Source: Gammaproteobacteria bacterium
Lineage (GTDB): Bacteria > Pseudomonadota > Gammaproteobacteria > Eutrophobiales > Eutrophobiaceae
Assembly (NCBI GenBank): GCA_041984885.1
Contig: JBHIXH010000006.1
Coordinates: 4,968 to 68,967, forward strand
Direction of reading: 5' to 3'
DNA: 64,000 nt
Shown: in pieces, positions 47,863-55,591 of the stretch
Numbering within the stretch: position 1 is the stretch's first letter
How the letters are laid out: every line of letters begins with the position of its first letter
Notes under the pieces: model-generated
Seen by the model: only the letters and a program-made list of their open reading frames with translations
Told to the model about the DNA's origin: nothing
The model's database searches: none
Program-made: the position numbers and the translations under genes

Positions 47863-49473
47863 CTATAAATCAGGCGAGACCGGCGCGGTAAATTGGTTAT
47901 CGGATTCATCGCTGTTTAATGCCTTTTGCAGATTAACGATGATGAAAATTATCAGCAGCGCAAACGGTAAACCGACGGATATGGCGGCGGTCTGTAATGC
48001 AGTCAGGCCGCCGGCGATTAACAGGATGGCAGCTACCAGTCCTTCTGTTATTGACCAGAAGACGCGTTGAACGACAGGCGGGTTGGCATGGCCGCCGGCC
48101 GTGATCATATCGATAACGAGTGAACCGGAATCTGACGACGTGACAAAAAAACTGATGATGACAACGGTCGCAAACGCACCGGCAGTCTTGAGCAGGATAT
48201 CGGGGAAGTTTTCATAACCGACCACGACCGGCAGCTTTTCAAAGAAAACGAACAGGGAACTCGCGACATTTTTTTGCACCGCGCCGACAAGTTCACCAGC
48301 CTGGTTGATCTCAACAAATAATGCGGCGTTACCGAACACGGATAACCAGATAAAGGTCATCAATGTGGCCACGACCAGAACTGCAAAAATAAATTCACGT
48401 ATCGTCCGGCCATAGGAAATACGTGCGACAAACATGCCGACGAACGGTGACCAGGCTATCCACCAGCCCCAGTAAAATACGGTCCAGCCGTTTTGCCAGT
48501 CACCACCGGTGTAGGTTTCATTCCAGAACGCGAGGTAAAAGAATCGATCCAGGTACAGGCCAAGGTTCTCGACAAAGCCATTCAGGATGAACAGCGACGG
48601 CCCGATAATAAATACAAACAGCAACAATAAAATGGCAACGAAAATATTGAACCTGGATAAATTCTGAATGCCACGATCAAGGCCGAGCACTACGGAAAGA
48701 GTCGCAACCGCGGTAATGCCGGTTATCAATAATATTTGTGTCAATGAACTGACCGGTATGCCAAACAGGTGGTCGAGACCGGCATTGATTTGACTGACGC
48801 CAAGACCGAGGGAGGTAGCGACGCCAAACAAGGTTGCCACTGTTGCGATCACATCGATTGCATGACCGTAGAAACCATAAATACGATCACCGAGAACGGG
48901 CTGAAAAATACTACGAATACTGAATGCCTGTTTTCGATTATAGGCAAAGTAGGCGATGGCCAGGCCGGTCAGGGCATAGATCCCCCATGCATGCAGCCCC
49001 CAGTGTAAAAACGTCGTGCTTATTGCATCTTCATACGCTCTCACACTGTAGGGGTTCGCCCCGTGTGGTGGTGTGATCAGGTGGAACACCGGTTCGGCCA
49101 CGGAATAAAACATGAGACCGATGCCCATACCGGCAGAGAACAACATGGCAAACCAGCCAAACCGGGAAAATTGCGGGTTTGCCTGCTTGCCGCCCAGGCG
49201 TATGTTTCCCGCAGGAGAAAATACAAGATAGATCAGGTAGGCCAGAATCAGATTTACGCACAAGACGAAAAACCAGCCGGTCTGGTTCGCTATCCAGGCC
49301 TGGATGGCGTTGATAGATTCAGCCACTGCTGTCAACGATATCAGGCAAACGACCACCAGCAAGGTGATCAGGACGACAGAAGAGAAAAATACAGGCGGAT
49401 TATAACTTAACCAGACGCGATCATGACGATCGCGGTATTCCTGGATTTTCAGTTTTTGATCCGCATCATTCAC
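47863..49473 (-). CDS. BCCT-family betaine/choline/carnitine transporter
   Basis: 536 aa with 12 transmembrane helices and a BCCT Trp-rich signature region (WTVFYWGWWIAWSPFVGMFVARIS). Confidence 0.85.
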   Translation of the reverse strand: MNDADQKLKIQEYRDRHDRVWLSYNPPVFFSSVVLITLLVVVCLISLTAVAESINAIQAWIANQTGWFFVLCVNLILAYLIYLVFSPAGNIRLGGKQANPQFSRFGWFAMLFSAGMGIGLMFYSVAEPVFHLITPPHGANPYSVRAYEDAISTTFLHWGLHAWGIYALTGLAIAYFAYNRKQAFSIRSIFQPVLGDRIYGFYGHAIDVIATVATLFGVATSLGLGVSQINAGLDHLFGIPVSSLTQILLITGITAVATLSVVLGLDRGIQNLSRFNIFVAILLLLFVFIIGPSLFILNGFVENLGLYLDRFFYLAFWNETYTGGDWQNGWTVFYWGWWIAWSPFVGMFVARISYGRTIREFIFAVLVVATLMTFIWLSVFGNAALFVEINQAGELVGAVQKNVASSLFVFFEKLPVVVGYENFPDILLKTAGAFATVVIISFFVTSSDSGSLVIDMITAGGHANPPVVQRVFWSITEGLVAAILLIAGGLTALQTAAISVGLPFALLIIFIIVNLQKALNSDESDNQFTAPVSPDL

Positions 49474-49490
49474 GGAAAAGCCCGGTTTTA

Positions 49491-50330
49491 TCAGTCAGGT
49501 TTTTGATAGTGCATGATACCCCATGCAAGGTAAGAGTTTTTTCCGGCTTCTATCCAGTGCTCAAGACCCTGGATCATGCGCGTGATGTAATCCGGCGAGA
49601 CAAACTGTTCCAGTTCTTCACGACGTGACAGTAACTCCTGCCGTACCCTGCCATAATGCGCGATCAACTGGTGTGTCATCTCGACCTGGCGCAGTTTTTT
49701 CCAGTTCAGTTTTTCTGCTATCGCCAGATAAAACTCAAAAGAACCGAGCGTATCGAGATGAATGCGATCAAGCACTGGTTGTAACACACCGTCCGGACAC
49801 GTATCCGATTGCATCGGGTCAGTAAAGATAAATTCACCACCCGGTTTTAAAACCCGATCAACCTCGTTTAATACCTTTTCGCGCTGACCGGAATGTAATA
49901 TTGCATCCTGTGACCAGGCAACATCAAAAGTGGAATCAGCAATGGACAGATCCTCAAAGCTGCCATCGATCACTTCGATCCTGTTACTGATGCCGAGTTT
50001 TTCATTGATGTCACGGTTGCGTGCATTCTGTGCCTCGCTCAGGTTGACACAGGTGACATTGCAGCCAAACTTATGATGTAGCCAGCGTGCTGCACCACCA
50101 TAACCGGCACCCAGATCAATGACGTTCGAGCCTGGCTGTATGCTTGTCAGCATCCCCGCCATTTTCGCCACGGTACGTTCGGATGCCGCGGCAATGGTGT
50201 CCGTTTCGTCTTCATACAGGCCGATATGTATATCTTCGCCGCCCCAGATGTGGAAGTAGAAATTGTCCGCATCATCGCTGTTGTAATACTCTTGCGCGGT
50301 TTTAACGACTTCTGAATAGTTTGCGTTCAT
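49491..50330 (-). CDS. Sarcosine/dimethylglycine N-methyltransferase (SDMT)
   Basis: Collinear with Halorhodospira halochloris SDMT (YYNSDDADNFYFHIWGGEDIHIGLY...DLGAGYGGAAR...GGEFIFTDPMQ). Confidence 0.85.
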   Translation of the reverse strand: MNANYSEVVKTAQEYYNSDDADNFYFHIWGGEDIHIGLYEDETDTIAAASERTVAKMAGMLTSIQPGSNVIDLGAGYGGAARWLHHKFGCNVTCVNLSEAQNARNRDINEKLGISNRIEVIDGSFEDLSIADSTFDVAWSQDAILHSGQREKVLNEVDRVLKPGGEFIFTDPMQSDTCPDGVLQPVLDRIHLDTLGSFEFYLAIAEKLNWKKLRQVEMTHQLIAHYGRVRQELLSRREELEQFVSPDYITRMIQGLEHWIEAGKNSYLAWGIMHYQKPD

Positions 50331-51139
50331 TAGTCTGTTTGAACATAACTTTTGGATGCCACGTGAATAAAGAAATCAGGCTCCTGGTTTTTAAACGTCT
50401 CCTGAAAATCGCCGTATGTTGTCACCTCCTGAAAGCCGACCTCTTTCATCAGCTTTTGCGTGTATTGCTTGCGCAGAGGAAACATGTTCAGGTGAAACGT
50501 TGCGCCGTCCTTGAATACGTATCGGAACCGCGCCAGGGTTGTATCCATGTGTTCCGGTGTTGCCGTGATCTCTTCGCCACAATAATAATAATTGTGGCCG
50601 GCCTCAATTTTGCCATCCATCAATGCATCGTAGTTTCGTTGATCGAGGATGAGGATACCGTCATGCCGCAGAGTGGCATAATACTCTGCCAGCGTTTTAC
50701 GGCGATCATTTTCATCATGTAAATGTGTAAACGAATTACCGAGGCAGATCACTGCATCGTAAAGATCATGCACGCTTTTGTTTAACCAGCGCCAGTCCGC
50801 ATGTACGGTTCTGAGTATATGTCCACGTTTACGCGCGTTTTCGAATGCCTTTGCCAACATGGCCGGGCTGCCATCGGCACTGGTAACTTCAAAACCGGCT
50901 TCCATCAGTTGTACCGAGTGGTAGCCGGTACCGGTTGCCACGTCGAGGACTTTTTTTGCCCCGTGCTCCTTTAGTATGTCGATAAAAAAGCTGCCTTCGC
51001 TATCGGCACGCCCGTCCCAGTCGATCAGTTCGTCCCATTTATTTACAAACGGGCTGATGTACTCATCGACGTACTTGTCCGAGCTTCGAACCCTGGTCGG
51101 GTTCTTGCCGTAATTCTGTTTCTTCGCTGTCTCAATCAT
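50330..51139 (-). CDS. Glycine/sarcosine N-methyltransferase (GSMT)
   Basis: Collinear with H. halochloris GSMT (DKWDELIDW...KKVLDVATGTGYHSV...SADGSPAML...TVHADWRWLNK). Confidence 0.85.
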   Translation of the reverse strand: MIETAKKQNYGKNPTRVRSSDKYVDEYISPFVNKWDELIDWDGRADSEGSFFIDILKEHGAKKVLDVATGTGYHSVQLMEAGFEVTSADGSPAMLAKAFENARKRGHILRTVHADWRWLNKSVHDLYDAVICLGNSFTHLHDENDRRKTLAEYYATLRHDGILILDQRNYDALMDGKIEAGHNYYYCGEEITATPEHMDTTLARFRYVFKDGATFHLNMFPLRKQYTQKLMKEVGFQEVTTYGDFQETFKNQEPDFFIHVASKSYVQTD

Positions 51140-51342
51140 AATATGCTCATTGCACCGGAATGCATGATGTCTGGTTAGTCAACGCTTCTCCATCCGGAAA
51201 AACGTACATTCAATTCAGTTTATTGTTTTTTTAGTCGTCCCTGCCTGAACAGGAACCTGGATAGATACTGAGCCTCAGGAGTCAGAACCTCAGCCATTGA
51301 AACGTGTTGTTACACGCAACGATGTAATCAGCATTGAAGCAA

Positions 51343-51368
51343 AGCCCACTTTGCAGGGGCTTTTTCTT
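51343..51368 (+). terminator. Orphan terminator-like hairpin in 620-bp non-coding region
   Basis: aaagccc-actttgca-gggcttt followed by ttttc. There is no + strand CDS upstream. Confidence 0.3.
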
Positions 51369-51760
51369 GTGTCTGATAATTGATGTAGTGCAGGCTGCGC
51401 TGCCTACAGATTCCTAACTATATGATAATTTTGAAATATTTTCAATGTCTAATCTCGTCACGGGCTTTAGCATTGCAGATAAGTAAATTCTCAATAATCG
51501 TGTATTTAACAGCCAGTTAGCGTATTTATGCCCTGTTTCGGGCGATCATCGTTTACACATTACCGATGTTAAACAGGCACTGCCATACCTTGCTGAACCA
51601 GGGCTTTCGGCCTTTCCGAATGCGGGGATAAACGCGCGAATGCGTCACAGGTAACTTGCTGTTGTTGCTTCATGCTTTTTTAACAGTTCAGTCAGGCGGG
51701 GCTGTATACAGGACAAGACGACCACTTTTTCTTTTCGCTTACCTGTAGCATGATCAGTCC

Positions 51761-52165
51761 ATGTGCGTTGCTATCAGATTTAAAAATTCCGAGGTGCGCT
51801 GGAACGTAACCGGTGCCGCGTTGCCGGTCATGGATAAGGAATCCGGTGAGATCGTCAGTTATCCGTGGGGGCGACGCGAATGGAACGAGCCCGGCAAGTT
51901 GTATCCGACCGGTTGGGCCCGACGCGAATCCATCGAGCAGGGCAAGTGGCAACGCTTTCATCCGCTGTCTGTTTTTATTGTTGCCGAATCGTTTATGGAG
52001 CGCGATCTCGACAAGCAACCGCACTGGGTCGATTTGCATGCGAGACAATACATCTCCGGTTTGCTTGTTGCATCCGGTGAAGAGAAGCGTGTCTATGTCA
52101 TTACCGTGCCGCCACCGGAGCCTCGTTTCAAACGTTGGCCGGAGATCGTGAATGAAGCTGGATGA
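51761..52165 (+). CDS. Short protein resembling an SOS response-associated peptidase (SRAP, YedK/HMCES family; Cys2 N-terminus); overlaps umuD start
   Basis: Starts MC... with a stop codon 15 nt upstream in frame. Contains RWNVTGAALPV (cf. the SRAP RYNVAPG..PV motif) and WGRREW / WARRESIEQ (cf. WG..P.W, NARxET). Only 134 aa, so truncated or divergent. Confidence 0.4.
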   Translation: MCVAIRFKNSEVRWNVTGAALPVMDKESGEIVSYPWGRREWNEPGKLYPTGWARRESIEQGKWQRFHPLSVFIVAESFMERDLDKQPHWVDLHARQYISGLLVASGEEKRVYVITVPPPEPRFKRWPEIVNEAG

Positions 52166-52577
52166 GTTTATTCTGCCAAAAGCGGAGTTATCCAGGCAGG
52201 AGATTCCGCTACTGGCAACGAAACTGGTCGCCGGGTTTCCCTCAGCCGCCGATGACTTTATTGATCAAAAACTCGATCTGAATGAATTCCTGATCAAGCA
52301 TCCGGCAGCGACCGTGTTTGCCTGGGCCAAGGGCGACTCGCTGATCGGTAAGGGCATATTCAATAATGATTTATTGATCATTGATCGCAGTATCGAACCA
52401 CAACATCACCAGGTCGTCGTCGCTGCGATCAATGGCGAGTTTACCTGCAAGATTCTCGACAAGAAGCAGGGCATGTTACTGGCTGCAAATGCCGAGTTCC
52501 CGCCGATCGATATCAATGGTCACGAGGATGCGTTGATCGAGGGTGTCATTATTCACTCGGTGCGAAGTCATATCTGA
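52152..52577 (+). CDS. umuD: Translesion polymerase V accessory subunit UmuD (S24 LexA-like peptidase)
   Basis: Aligns along its full length with E. coli UmuD (GFPSAADDFIDQKLDLN...GDSLIGKGIFNNDLLIID...INGEFTCK). Confidence 0.85.
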   Translation: MKLDEFILPKAELSRQEIPLLATKLVAGFPSAADDFIDQKLDLNEFLIKHPAATVFAWAKGDSLIGKGIFNNDLLIIDRSIEPQHHQVVVAAINGEFTCKILDKKQGMLLAANAEFPPIDINGHEDALIEGVIIHSVRSHI

Positions 52578-53836
52578 TGTACGCGCTCGTCGACTGCAAC
52601 AGCTTTTACGCATCGTGCGAGCAAATCTTTCGGCCTGATCTGCGTAACCAGCCTGTTGTTGTGTTGAGTAATAACGATGGTTGCATCATTGCGCGGTCAA
52701 AAGAAGCAAAGGCACTCGGTATCCCGGATCTGCATGCGTATTTCAAGGTCAAACCGTTTTTAAAAAAACATAACGTCACCGTGTTCTCGGCCAACTTCTG
52801 TTTGTACGGCGATATCAGCTGGCGGGTGATGGAGACGCTACGACAGTTCAGCCCGGCGACCGAGGTATACAGCATTGATGAGATGTTTGTTGATCTGCAT
52901 GGCAATATTGAACCGCTGGACACGCTGGGCAGAAACATCAAACAGCGTATCTGGCAACATGTACGCATGCCGGTCGGTGTCGGCATTGCACCGACGAAGA
53001 CACTGGCAAAACTGGCGAATCGTGGTGCAAAACATATCGCAAGAACGCAGGGCGTATGCGTACTGGATACAGCGGAGAAATGGCAATGGCTACAACGTCG
53101 TTTACCGGTGGAAAAGGTCTGGGGCGTAGGACAACGCTTTGCCAAACGTTTAAATCGTCTCGGTATATACACGATATTTGACCTGGCGCAGGCTTCAGCA
53201 AAGCGCGTGCGCGAACACAGCAATGTAAACCTGGAACGTACAGTAGAAGAACTGAATGGCGTGCCCTGTTATGCACTGGAAGACGCACATGCGAACAAGA
53301 AACAGATCTACGTCACGCGCTCGTTCGGAAAAAAAGCGACGACATCAGAGGAACTGAGAAACCATATCAGCCGTTATGCCAGTGCAGCCGCCGAGAAATT
53401 GCGTGCGCAAAATTGCAAGGCCAGTGTTGTTACTGTCTTTGTGCAAACCAGCCCGTTTGAAGATAACTATTATGGTAATGCGGTAACGTTACCTTTGCCG
53501 CATCCGACCGATGACAGTCGCGACCTGATCTACCAGGCAAGAAAAATGATTGCCTCGCTGTATCGACCGGGACACCGTTTCCAACGCTGCGGTTTCGGTA
53601 TTGTCGAGATGTTCGATAACACATATCGACAGTTCGATCTGTTTCATTCGGGGCAAACGCAGCAGTCAGAAATAATGATGACGACGCTGGACAGGATCAA
53701 TCGACGCTATGGGCGTGATACCGCTGTGTTTGGTGCGGAAGGACTGCGCGGCAAATGGACGATGCGACAAAACTATCTTTCGCCACGCTACACGACGAGC
53801 TGGAAAGACCTGCCGACAGTGAAGTGTATAAACTGA
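52577..53836 (+). CDS. umuC: Error-prone Y-family DNA polymerase UmuC
   Basis: MYALVDCNSFYASCE N-terminus and SNNDGCIIARS. The start overlaps the umuD stop. Confidence 0.9.
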   Translation: MYALVDCNSFYASCEQIFRPDLRNQPVVVLSNNDGCIIARSKEAKALGIPDLHAYFKVKPFLKKHNVTVFSANFCLYGDISWRVMETLRQFSPATEVYSIDEMFVDLHGNIEPLDTLGRNIKQRIWQHVRMPVGVGIAPTKTLAKLANRGAKHIARTQGVCVLDTAEKWQWLQRRLPVEKVWGVGQRFAKRLNRLGIYTIFDLAQASAKRVREHSNVNLERTVEELNGVPCYALEDAHANKKQIYVTRSFGKKATTSEELRNHISRYASAAAEKLRAQNCKASVVTVFVQTSPFEDNYYGNAVTLPLPHPTDDSRDLIYQARKMIASLYRPGHRFQRCGFGIVEMFDNTYRQFDLFHSGQTQQSEIMMTTLDRINRRYGRDTAVFGAEGLRGKWTMRQNYLSPRYTTSWKDLPTVKCIN

Positions 53837-54545: not shown

Positions 54546-55061
54546 CTATTTACCCAGATGCTGATAACTGAATAAAAATTCATTGCTTTGTAGCGGTGTA
54601 TGACAGGACACACAGTCAAGATCATTCTCTTTAATACCGCCCCTGGCATCATATATCGCATAACCCCAGTCGCCTGTTCTGTTATCCGCGGAGAACTGTG
54701 CATCCCAGTTGTTGCGTTTTTCCATCACTGCGATAGCCGCCAGTTTTGATTTTATAAATAACCCGTCAGCGCCAGTGACAGGATTGCCTGCCTCATCTAC
54801 CTCGGGTTTATAGACTTCCATGACCACAATGGAACCATCAGACAGCTTGCCGTTTTTAATACTTTCAATGGCGGCTTTATTCGCATAGAAATCAGCGACT
54901 TGTTTATTATTTGCACGATTTTGCGTGTGGTACTGAATAAACTGGTTTTTGTAATCTGCAGGAAATGGTACGAATTCCGGGTTGCCACCCGCGTAAGCAA
55001 ACATTGAAACTAATGCAATACAAGTAAAACCGGTTACATACTTCATCAACATGTCCTCCAC
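54546..55061 (-). CDS. Cytochrome P460 / c'-beta family protein (periplasmic, single CxxCH near C-terminus)
   Basis: Signal peptide. About 170 aa with a DCVSCH heme-binding motif 20 residues from the C-terminus. Confidence 0.6.
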   Translation of the reverse strand: MEDMLMKYVTGFTCIALVSMFAYAGGNPEFVPFPADYKNQFIQYHTQNRANNKQVADFYANKAAIESIKNGKLSDGSIVVMEVYKPEVDEAGNPVTGADGLFIKSKLAAIAVMEKRNNWDAQFSADNRTGDWGYAIYDARGGIKENDLDCVSCHTPLQSNEFLFSYQHLGK

Positions 55062-55079
55062 AGGGTGGCACTTTTAATA

Positions 55080-55102
55080 AACATGTATATAATATACATG
55101 TT
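55080..55102. promoter_or_regulatory. Perfect 11-1-11 palindrome matching NsrR (Rrf2) operator architecture
   Basis: AACATGTATAT-a-ATATACATGTT. Compare the E. coli NsrR box AAGATGCATTT-n-AAATGCATCTT. Lies between the divergent P460 and nsrR starts. Confidence 0.6.
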
Positions 55103-55171
55103 AATGGAGTGTAGTGGATGAAAGTAAAGTTGTCCAGATGTAATACGGTTGAATTCGGCAGGTAATGACGT

Positions 55172-55591
55172 ATGCAATTAACGAGGCAGTCTGATTATTC
55201 TTTAAGGGTGCTGATCTACCTGGCCCTGAATCCGGATCGACTTGCGAATATTGCTGAAATCGCCGATGCCTTTAACGTTTCACGAAACCACCTGGTTAAA
55301 GTCGTCCACCAGTTGTCTAAAACGGGATACATACGCACGGTTCGTGGACATGGCGGAGGTATCGAGTTGGCGTATTCTGCAGAAAAGATATCTGTCGGCT
55401 CAATAGTCAGAATGACAGAGAACACGCTTGAAGTGATTAACTGTAAACAACCCGTTTGCCCTATCTTGCCGGCCTGTCGATTAAAAAGAGTGTTGAATGA
55501 AGCAACGGAAGCATTTATGCGAACACTTGACGCTTATACGATCTCTGACTTGATACGAAATAAAAATAAATTAAATCGCTTAATTGCCTGA
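55172..55591 (+). CDS. nsrR: Rrf2-family NO-sensing repressor NsrR
   Basis: Rrf2 HTH (SDYSLRVLIYLA...) and a C-x4-C-x5-C cluster (CKQPVCPILPAC) with NsrR spacing. Confidence 0.8.
   Translation: MQLTRQSDYSLRVLIYLALNPDRLANIAEIADAFNVSRNHLVKVVHQLSKTGYIRTVRGHGGGIELAYSAEKISVGSIVRMTENTLEVINCKQPVCPILPACRLKRVLNEATEAFMRTLDAYTISDLIRNKNKLNRLIA

Follow-up and report, generated by a model that had tools for sequence, protein, structure and literature searches.

What is a protein of 134 residues that begins Met-Cys doing at the head of a umuDC operon? The question is raised by a stretch of 64,000 nucleotides from a gammaproteobacterial genome (Eutrophobiaceae; assembly GCA_041984885.1, contig JBHIXH010000006.1, positions 4,968 to 68,967; the window, in whose numbering coordinates are given), where an open reading frame (ORF) for such a protein, here called the mini-SRAP gene, lies directly ahead of umuD and umuC, the genes for DNA polymerase V (Pol V). 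A first-pass annotation made from the sequence alone had seen in it a likeness to SRAP, the family of abasic-site crosslinking proteins, had suggested that with the error-prone polymerase it could make up a coherent damage-tolerance unit, and had named a truncated gene or an unrelated small protein as alternatives. It is now very probable that the product is a minimal SRAP-fold protein belonging to a family of Met-Cys proteins of about 135-150 residues whose genes adjoin those of Y-family polymerases, and that its gene is the first of an overlap-coupled miniSRAP-umuD-umuC cassette. That the protein works by covalent crosslinking to abasic sites through Cys2 is suggested by analogy, and seems slightly favoured over its denial, while a SRAP-fold cassette protein with such a mechanism operating alongside Pol V is on balance the best, and a reasonably probable, explanation of the locus as a whole.

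By itself the window protein says little in the usual comparisons, with neither Pfam nor NCBIfam giving a match at thresholds as loose as E=10 and with only noise against PDB sequences and PHROGs. An exhaustive HMMER search over 1.84 billion cluster representatives recovered relatives in 315 of them at E<=1e-3 (126 at E<=1e-10), mostly of 130-150 residues, and most of the 315 share the same N- and C-terminal boundaries. A single-motif search of GTDB species genomes gave 257 relatives, mainly in the Gammaproteobacteria, the taxa including Methylophaga, Sedimenticola, Thiohalomonadaceae, Woeseiaceae and sulfur-oxidising or bivalve symbionts; gammaproteobacterial members at loci L006-L085 are 36-47% identical to the window protein. 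Seventy-five family members were aligned (alignment A2, the basis of the family hidden Markov model and of the structure model), and the conserved motifs are Cys2, LPV, WG(RR), GGWARLxSI, FMEKD, RVYVVT and [H/Y/F]xRWPRI. The last of these reads HDRWP in many members and HDRMP, the canonical SRAP His motif, in some, and IMG already labels some of the His-type proteins 'putative SOS response-associated peptidase YedK'. Cysteine occupies position 2 in 103 of the 109 cluster representatives that cover it; in 80 independent GTDB loci picked by the internal motif GGWARL[ED]S[IV], the start codon (Met or Val) is followed by Cys in every case.

A few family members are much longer, with the mini-SRAP domain at the C-terminus: P0089 (508 residues), P0100 (608), P0101 (610), P0127 (556) and P0010 (248), with locus L088, positions 153-1679, as the place of such a gene. 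These long proteins have in common a G.Y.LNL motif that immediately precedes the domain, three have an N-terminal transmembrane helix, and four of the five retain the now internal Cys (MCGG, VCGG, LCHG, SCNG). They are either run-ons of gene calling or genuine fusions, in which the Cys would become exposed only on cleavage.

Homology of the family with SRAP is established by three kinds of evidence, and the family falls outside the current Pfam model. AlphaFold2 run on A2 gave a compact model, mostly of beta structure and confident along the full 134 residues (predicted local distance difference test score, pLDDT, 96.5; predicted template modelling score 0.90); with an alignment of 3 sequences the pLDDT had been 45, and it was the 75 sequences that made the model usable. 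Foldseek placed YedK structures in all of the top 7 places at probabilities of 0.99-1.0, the next match being at 0.09, so that the SRAP fold asked about at first pass is the one predicted; a viral fold library returned nothing significant for the model. PF02586, the SRAP family, is the only Pfam family that recurs across A2, with weak colinear matches in 16 of the 75 members (best E 1.1e-6) that lay family residues 17-143 on profile positions 37-171, and twenty relatives scanned singly score 11.9-20.5 bits, below the gathering score of 27.1. A profile comparison by hhalign of A2 with a small SRAP alignment gave P = 1.4e-4 to 3.8e-4 in a motif-on-motif register. The family profile searched against PDB sequences with hmmsearch found only spurious matches to RCC1-like BLIP-II repeats. 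The suspected SRAP likeness is thus supported by the fold search, by PF02586 in the relatives and by the profile comparison.

Other identities can be dealt with on the same basis. That the ORF is a chance reading frame or an unrelated small protein, as the first-pass annotation had allowed, draws on the lack of direct database matches for the window protein itself; the family search and the fold comparison have already refuted it and its likelihood is next to nil. A Met-Cys start occurs also in the N-terminal nucleophile glutamine amidotransferases, and an amidotransferase reading of this one was ruled out by the fold. Identity of the family with the ImuB-C domain of Aravind was rejected as well, ImuB-C being a beta-barrel of about 50-100 residues that shows no catalytic pattern and in which a C-terminal Trp is conserved; it probably corresponds to Pfam DUF4113, a domain that lies here inside UmuC.

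The three genes of the cassette are tightly packed (see the table). An in-frame TAG stands at 51746-51748, five codons 5' of the mini-SRAP ATG, and Met-Cys is therefore the earliest possible start. From its N-terminus MCVAIRF the protein runs through MCVAIRFKNSEVRWNVTGAALPV...WARRESIEQGKW...FMERD...FKRWPEIVNEAG, and the segments RWNVTGAALPV, WGRREW and WARRESIEQ in which the SRAP likeness was first noticed are all present in the translation. The mini-SRAP TGA (52163-52165) falls 14 nucleotides inside umuD, whose ATG at 52152 is preceded at 7 nucleotides by GGAG, and the overlap together with this GGAG make translational coupling of the two genes likely; umuC begins 412 nucleotides 3' of the mini-SRAP stop codon and is part of the same overlap-coupled operon. 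Both polymerase genes exceed the curated NCBIfam cut-offs (for umuD, NF007621 at 128.7 bits against 110; for umuC, NF002955 at 454.6 bits against 431) and, adjacent and co-oriented, they are by sequence bona fide Pol V genes. The catalytic motifs VDCNSFYAS and SIDEMF are visible in umuC, and UmuD has what we take, from comparison with UmuD of E. coli and with LexA, to be its Ala-Gly cleavage site in KLVA/GFPS, its serine in GDSL and its lysine in FTCK. In its layout, then, the locus is as first described, a 134-codon ORF with a Met-Cys start, an in-frame stop just upstream of it and an overlap with the start of umuD, placed before umuDC.

Features of the miniSRAP-umuD-umuC cassette, in window coordinates
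Feature	Coordinates	Strand	Remarks
mini-SRAP gene, 134 aa	51761..52165	+	minimal SRAP core; first of three genes
umuD, 141 aa, S24 autoproteolytic subunit of Pol V	52152..52577	+	Peptidase_S24 E 2.2e-21; NF007621
umuC, 419 aa, Y-family catalytic subunit of Pol V	52577..53836	+	IMS, IMS_C, DUF4113 domains; NF002955
mini-SRAP 3' end / umuD 5' end overlap, 14 nt	52152..52165	+	
TGATG, umuD stop / umuC start overlap, 1 nt	52575..52579	+	

Three close homologues of the window protein were found by a word-indexed protein search. One of them (P0003, 77% identical) is carried by four Logan contigs in the order miniSRAP-umuD-umuC, with an overlap of 11 nucleotides between the mini-SRAP gene and umuD (L001-L003). 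Against the L001 homologue the ORF has 77% amino-acid and 68% nucleotide identity, with 22, 19 and 87 differences at codon positions 1, 2 and 3 and with 69 codons changed only synonymously against 31 changed non-synonymously, a pattern by which the mini-SRAP ORF is a real coding sequence under strong purifying selection. An antisense ORF of 118 residues overlapping the gene (51692..52048, minus strand) is spurious, the equivalent L001 frames being full of stops. Homology to L001 detected by blastn spans exactly 51761-53808 and the genes flanking the cassette in the homologous contigs are unrelated to those in the window; since the homology is confined to the cassette, the three genes are inherited as a unit. 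Seven residues (C2, R54, E80, T115, F123, R125 and P127) do not vary between the window protein and its two close homologues. Scans of genomes and metagenomes gave no further members of this subclade, which is therefore rare.

With family and coding pattern in hand, the truncation alternative can be weighed. That the gene is what truncation or decay has left of a canonical SRAP gene of about 220 codons could be argued from the 88 residues by which the protein falls short of YedK (222 residues; some 90 had been estimated at first pass), the absent PF02586 match and the replacement of two canonical active-site residues. Yet the 315 relatives, mostly of 130-150 residues and with the same boundaries, are equally short, for which reason the gene is not a truncation; in addition the ORF is under strong purifying selection, the model is compact and confident from end to end, and the overlap with umuD in which the stop codon lies is conserved. 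A remnant is accordingly refuted and barely credible.

Across the wider family the link with polymerases is a general one. Among 68 GTDB loci with at least 1.5 kb upstream, a Y-family polymerase gene lies directly upstream of the mini-SRAP gene in 52 (76%), at a gap of typically 3-30 nucleotides, and in 22 of those 52 a LexA gene lies further upstream. The polymerase in question is Pol IV (DinB)-like, has 411-419 residues and intact catalytic motifs, and the upstream regulator is a full LexA, the recurrent operon being lexA, Pol IV-like polymerase, His-type mini-SRAP, for example at L038 (3015-5429) and L063 (3016-5423). Other arrangements are seen, with the mini-SRAP gene upstream of the polymerase at L046 and, at L040 (3096-5423), a His-type mini-SRAP gene divergent from umuD-umuC; the UmuC there is 46% identical to that of the window, and with L040 the family is seen paired with Pol V genes a second time, independently and in another layout. 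The notion of a coherent damage-tolerance unit gains support from this context, in that homology to L001 takes in just the three genes and three quarters of informative loci have a polymerase neighbour. A mobile element (L086, 654-3077, with a MobA/MobL relaxase and RadC) holds a canonical SRAP of 220 residues (PF02586) divergent from a Y-family polymerase gene and, 2 nucleotides after that gene, a Tyr-type mini-SRAP; presence of both kinds in one locus argues that they are not redundant.

How much of the SRAP active site then survives in so short a protein? Residue equivalences with YedK come from the hhalign profile alignment, for which the YedK query sequence was checked against the PDB. 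Cys2 aligns with Cys2, and Glu80 (in FMERD) with Glu105 (in FEWKK). Arg54, Thr115 and Arg125 align with Arg77, Thr149 and Arg162, so that the phosphate anchor for single-stranded DNA is present; Phe78, Val113, Thr115 and Pro127 correspond to the hydrophobic pocket residues Trp103, Ile147, Thr149 and Pro164, and Ser57 and Lys62 stand for Thr80 and Arg85. Canonical SRAPs (E. coli YedK, human HMCES, B. subtilis YoqW; PF02586, formerly DUF159) thus share with the mini-SRAP the Cys after Met, the catalytic Glu, the Arg/Thr/Arg anchor and the pocket, and both kinds are linked to polymerase genes. They differ in length (210-260 residues against 134) and in having an N-terminal helical insert (about residues 7-33 of YedK) and some 50 C-terminal residues (after about 171, to 222), both of which the mini-SRAP lacks. 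They differ also at two active-site positions, Asn75, which is Trp in most of the family (53 of 75 representatives, with Asn in 1 of 75), and His160, which is Phe in the window subclade. The latter position holds His in 27, Tyr in 17 and Phe in 9 of the 75, or His 52, Tyr 26 and Phe 13 over all representatives with a residue there. In the 80 GTDB members C2, the Glu, the Thr and both Arg reach 100% conservation and the His is kept in 78, and these counts make the Phe type of the window a derived minority. The check on Cys2, Glu and His proposed at first pass therefore came out divided, the Cys2 and Glu80 being in place by profile alignment and the His being replaced by Phe123.

What such replacements may cost can be gauged from work on YedK. 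There C2 and E105 are essential, with E105 the main catalyst; H160A/Q crosslinks about 10-fold slower, mainly at ring opening, and N75A has a modest or little effect (PMC9436759, Paulin 2022). R77A, T149A and R162A each abolish binding of single-stranded DNA, and H160A still crosslinks (PMC6821365, Wang 2019). By these mutagenesis results the window protein keeps all of the essential residues and loses two that are helpful and dispensable.

A plausible course of events would then be as follows. Methionine aminopeptidase would take off Met1, leaving the alpha-amino and thiol groups of Cys2 exposed, and the protein would bind single-stranded DNA through the Arg54/Thr115/Arg125 anchor. With Glu80 as the acid-base catalyst, Cys2 would attack the ring-opened aldehyde of an abasic site, and protein and DNA would end up joined by a thiazolidine crosslink of the kind that YedK and HMCES form. 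Because it would be co-produced, stoichiometrically, with UmuD and UmuC, the mini-SRAP may shield abasic sites in the single-stranded gaps where Pol V acts, and might then control or hand over the bypass of the shielded sites, possibly while physically bound to the polymerase, as has been predicted for related SRAP-like proteins. With Phe123 in place of the His, slower ring opening of the abasic site would be expected and not the abolition of crosslinking, and absence of the C-terminal segment should cost the contacts of YedK on the 3' side of the lesion.

Several observations count against a crosslinking SRAP in league with Pol V. PF02586, the model by which the protein was to be judged at first pass, finds nothing in it even at E=10, and on this point the positive evidence comes instead from the weak matches in 16 of 75 relatives and from hhalign. 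The hhalign probability itself is modest, at 16-36%, and the residue equivalences rest on this profile alignment and not on superposition; the SRAP alignment used was small, a protein search and a viral scan having given only close relatives of YedK, and it is for want of a diverse canonical-SRAP alignment that the probability stayed modest. In the active site Trp52 (GWARRES) replaces Asn75 (INARVET) and Phe123 (FKRWP) replaces the His160 of the canonical HDRxP motif, while R206, N210 and V211, with which YedK contacts DNA 3' of the lesion, are missing. Elsewhere in the family the Glu is present in 104 of the 146 representatives that have a residue in this column and lost, with Cys2 kept, in the other 42, about a quarter, for which reason the role of the conserved Cys2 may differ from that in YedK. 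HMCES in human cells restrains translesion synthesis and does not assist it, and on that account any effect on Pol V might, as far as sequence goes, be to promote or to restrain. Finally no LexA box of the form CTGT-N8-ACAG, with at most 1 mismatch, occurs in 51139-51761, though the LexA motif of the host may differ, and its absence upstream leaves SOS induction of the cassette unsupported.

An older proposal bears on the same residues. In 2013 Aravind et al. ascribed to SRAP, by inference, an autoproteolytic switch and a triad of Cys, His and Glu (PMC3765255), on which view the mini-SRAP could be a thiol autopeptidase, or a peptidase that processes itself or a partner such as UmuD, and the long family members with an internal domain keep a Cys that only cleavage would expose. 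But YedK and HMCES have been shown to be abasic-site crosslinkers, and removal of Met1 does not depend on active-site residues (PMC9436759); the window protein moreover is without the His of the putative triad, and the UmuD encoded beside it has an S24 self-cleavage module of its own. A peptidase seems very improbable.

The published system closest to a polymerase-bound SRAP-like protein is the UmuC-SRAP-RecA module of Planctomycetes, which has short SRAP-like proteins and AlphaFold complexes with an interface predicted template modelling score of about 0.85, and in which these proteins are proposed as a small subunit of the UmuC-like polymerase (PMC12926913, NAR 2026). That account consists of one sentence and AlphaFold models, and leaves both the active-site residues and any chemistry at abasic sites aside. 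Its five SRAP-like proteins have 137-156 residues and a Met-Cys start, and the family model from A2 scores them at 72.5 (QDU57894), 57.9 (QEL14819), 49.4 (QDU13703), 47.5 (AGA24969) and 27.3 bits (QDU82800); given these 27-72 bits they and the window ORF are members of one superfamily. As in the window, the SRAP-like protein adjoins a Y-family polymerase of the UmuC-like kind. The planctomycete module, however, is without UmuD, whereas the window gene lies upstream of a complete umuD-umuC; the planctomycete proteins keep some 20 further residues behind the first strand, and some retain the canonical HDRMP motif.

Could the mini-SRAP then be a subunit and nothing more, a non-covalent regulatory or structural partner that binds UmuC in the manner of UmuD' or YolD and tunes the activity of Pol V, its SRAP fold put to new use as a module for binding protein or DNA and crosslinking lost or irrelevant? 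Confident AlphaFold complexes for the planctomycete small subunits point this way, as do the tight linkage to Y-family polymerase genes, often with translational coupling, the lack of both His and Asn in the window subclade, and the absence of the Glu from a fraction of the family. The near-universal Cys after the start (80 of 80, 103 of 109) is on the other hand hard to explain without some chemistry of an N-terminal Cys, Glu80 and the complete phosphate anchor do not vary within the window subclade, and with UmuD already in the cassette there is no obvious vacant slot for a small subunit. A purely non-covalent role, the chief rival, is thus rather unlikely, though it keeps some weight, and binding to the polymerase and crosslinking are not mutually exclusive. 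A reading that joins them, speculative and doubtful, would make the mini-SRAP a fourth component of the Pol V mutasome, a His-less SRAP that tags abasic sites reversibly and covalently through Cys2 while bound to UmuC or UmuD'. If true, it would mean lesion-specific delivery or gating of Pol V by a stoichiometric crosslinking subunit, and the same logic would extend to the (lexA)-PolY-miniSRAP operons found in many Gammaproteobacteria.

Returning to the putative crosslinking SRAP of the cassette, it remains to say what is new in it. SRAP was defined as a domain of 220-260 residues, and its operonic association with UmuCD, DinB and ImuA-ImuB-DnaE2 has been on record since 2013 (Aravind, Anand and Iyer 2013, PMC3765255); in Acinetobacter a canonical SRAP, A1S_2014, is transcribed upstream of umuC (PMC7273328). 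The gammaproteobacterial (lexA)-dinB-like-miniSRAP operons have the same family, length, Met-Cys start and tight coupling to a polymerase as the window cassette, but place the mini-SRAP downstream of a Pol IV-like polymerase and not upstream of Pol V, encode a full LexA and not UmuD, and keep the His in 78 of 80 where the window has Phe. New here is a minimal, His-less SRAP ahead of a complete umuDC, the general association of SRAP with polymerases being already published.

The surroundings of the cassette are ordinary chromosomal genes, for a BCCT transporter, two methyltransferases, a GDSL lipase, cytochrome P460 and an Rrf2 regulator. The mini-SRAP gene is preceded by an intergenic region of 620 bp, and the DNA upstream of the cassette has no conservation with L001. 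A perfect 10-bp palindrome, CTGTATACAG, lies at 51702-51711, 50 nucleotides 5' of the mini-SRAP start; its half-sites are LexA-like, with a spacer of 2 nucleotides against 8, and it is the sole exact copy in the window and not statistically remarkable. Divergent from the cassette (47863-51139, minus strand) are the BCCT betaine/choline transporter and two S-adenosylmethionine-dependent methyltransferases (279 and 269 residues), whose resemblance to a glycine-betaine synthesis cluster (glycine/sarcosine/dimethylglycine methyltransferase) suggests a halotolerant organism. Just 3' of the cassette (54546-55591) cytochrome P460 (minus strand) is divergent from the Rrf2-family regulator (plus strand), a pair possibly related to the handling of nitric oxide or hydroxylamine.

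What is known of SRAP in bacteria is that YedK crosslinks abasic sites in vitro, a link to translesion synthesis being known only from gene neighbourhoods. Being without a Pfam or NCBIfam model, the mini-SRAP family is currently 'hypothetical' in most genomes. Its core of 134 residues indicates which parts of SRAP are dispensable, namely the helices at the N-terminus, the segment that contacts DNA at the C-terminus, the Asn and, beyond these, the His as well, and which by the same token are not, namely Cys2, the Glu and the Arg/Thr/Arg anchor. The polymerase linkage, through overlaps with umuDC and through gaps of 3-30 nucleotides to a DinB-like gene in dozens of genomes, amounts to a compact genetic system, and one suited to asking whether SRAP crosslinks help, gate or antagonise the error-prone bypass of abasic sites.

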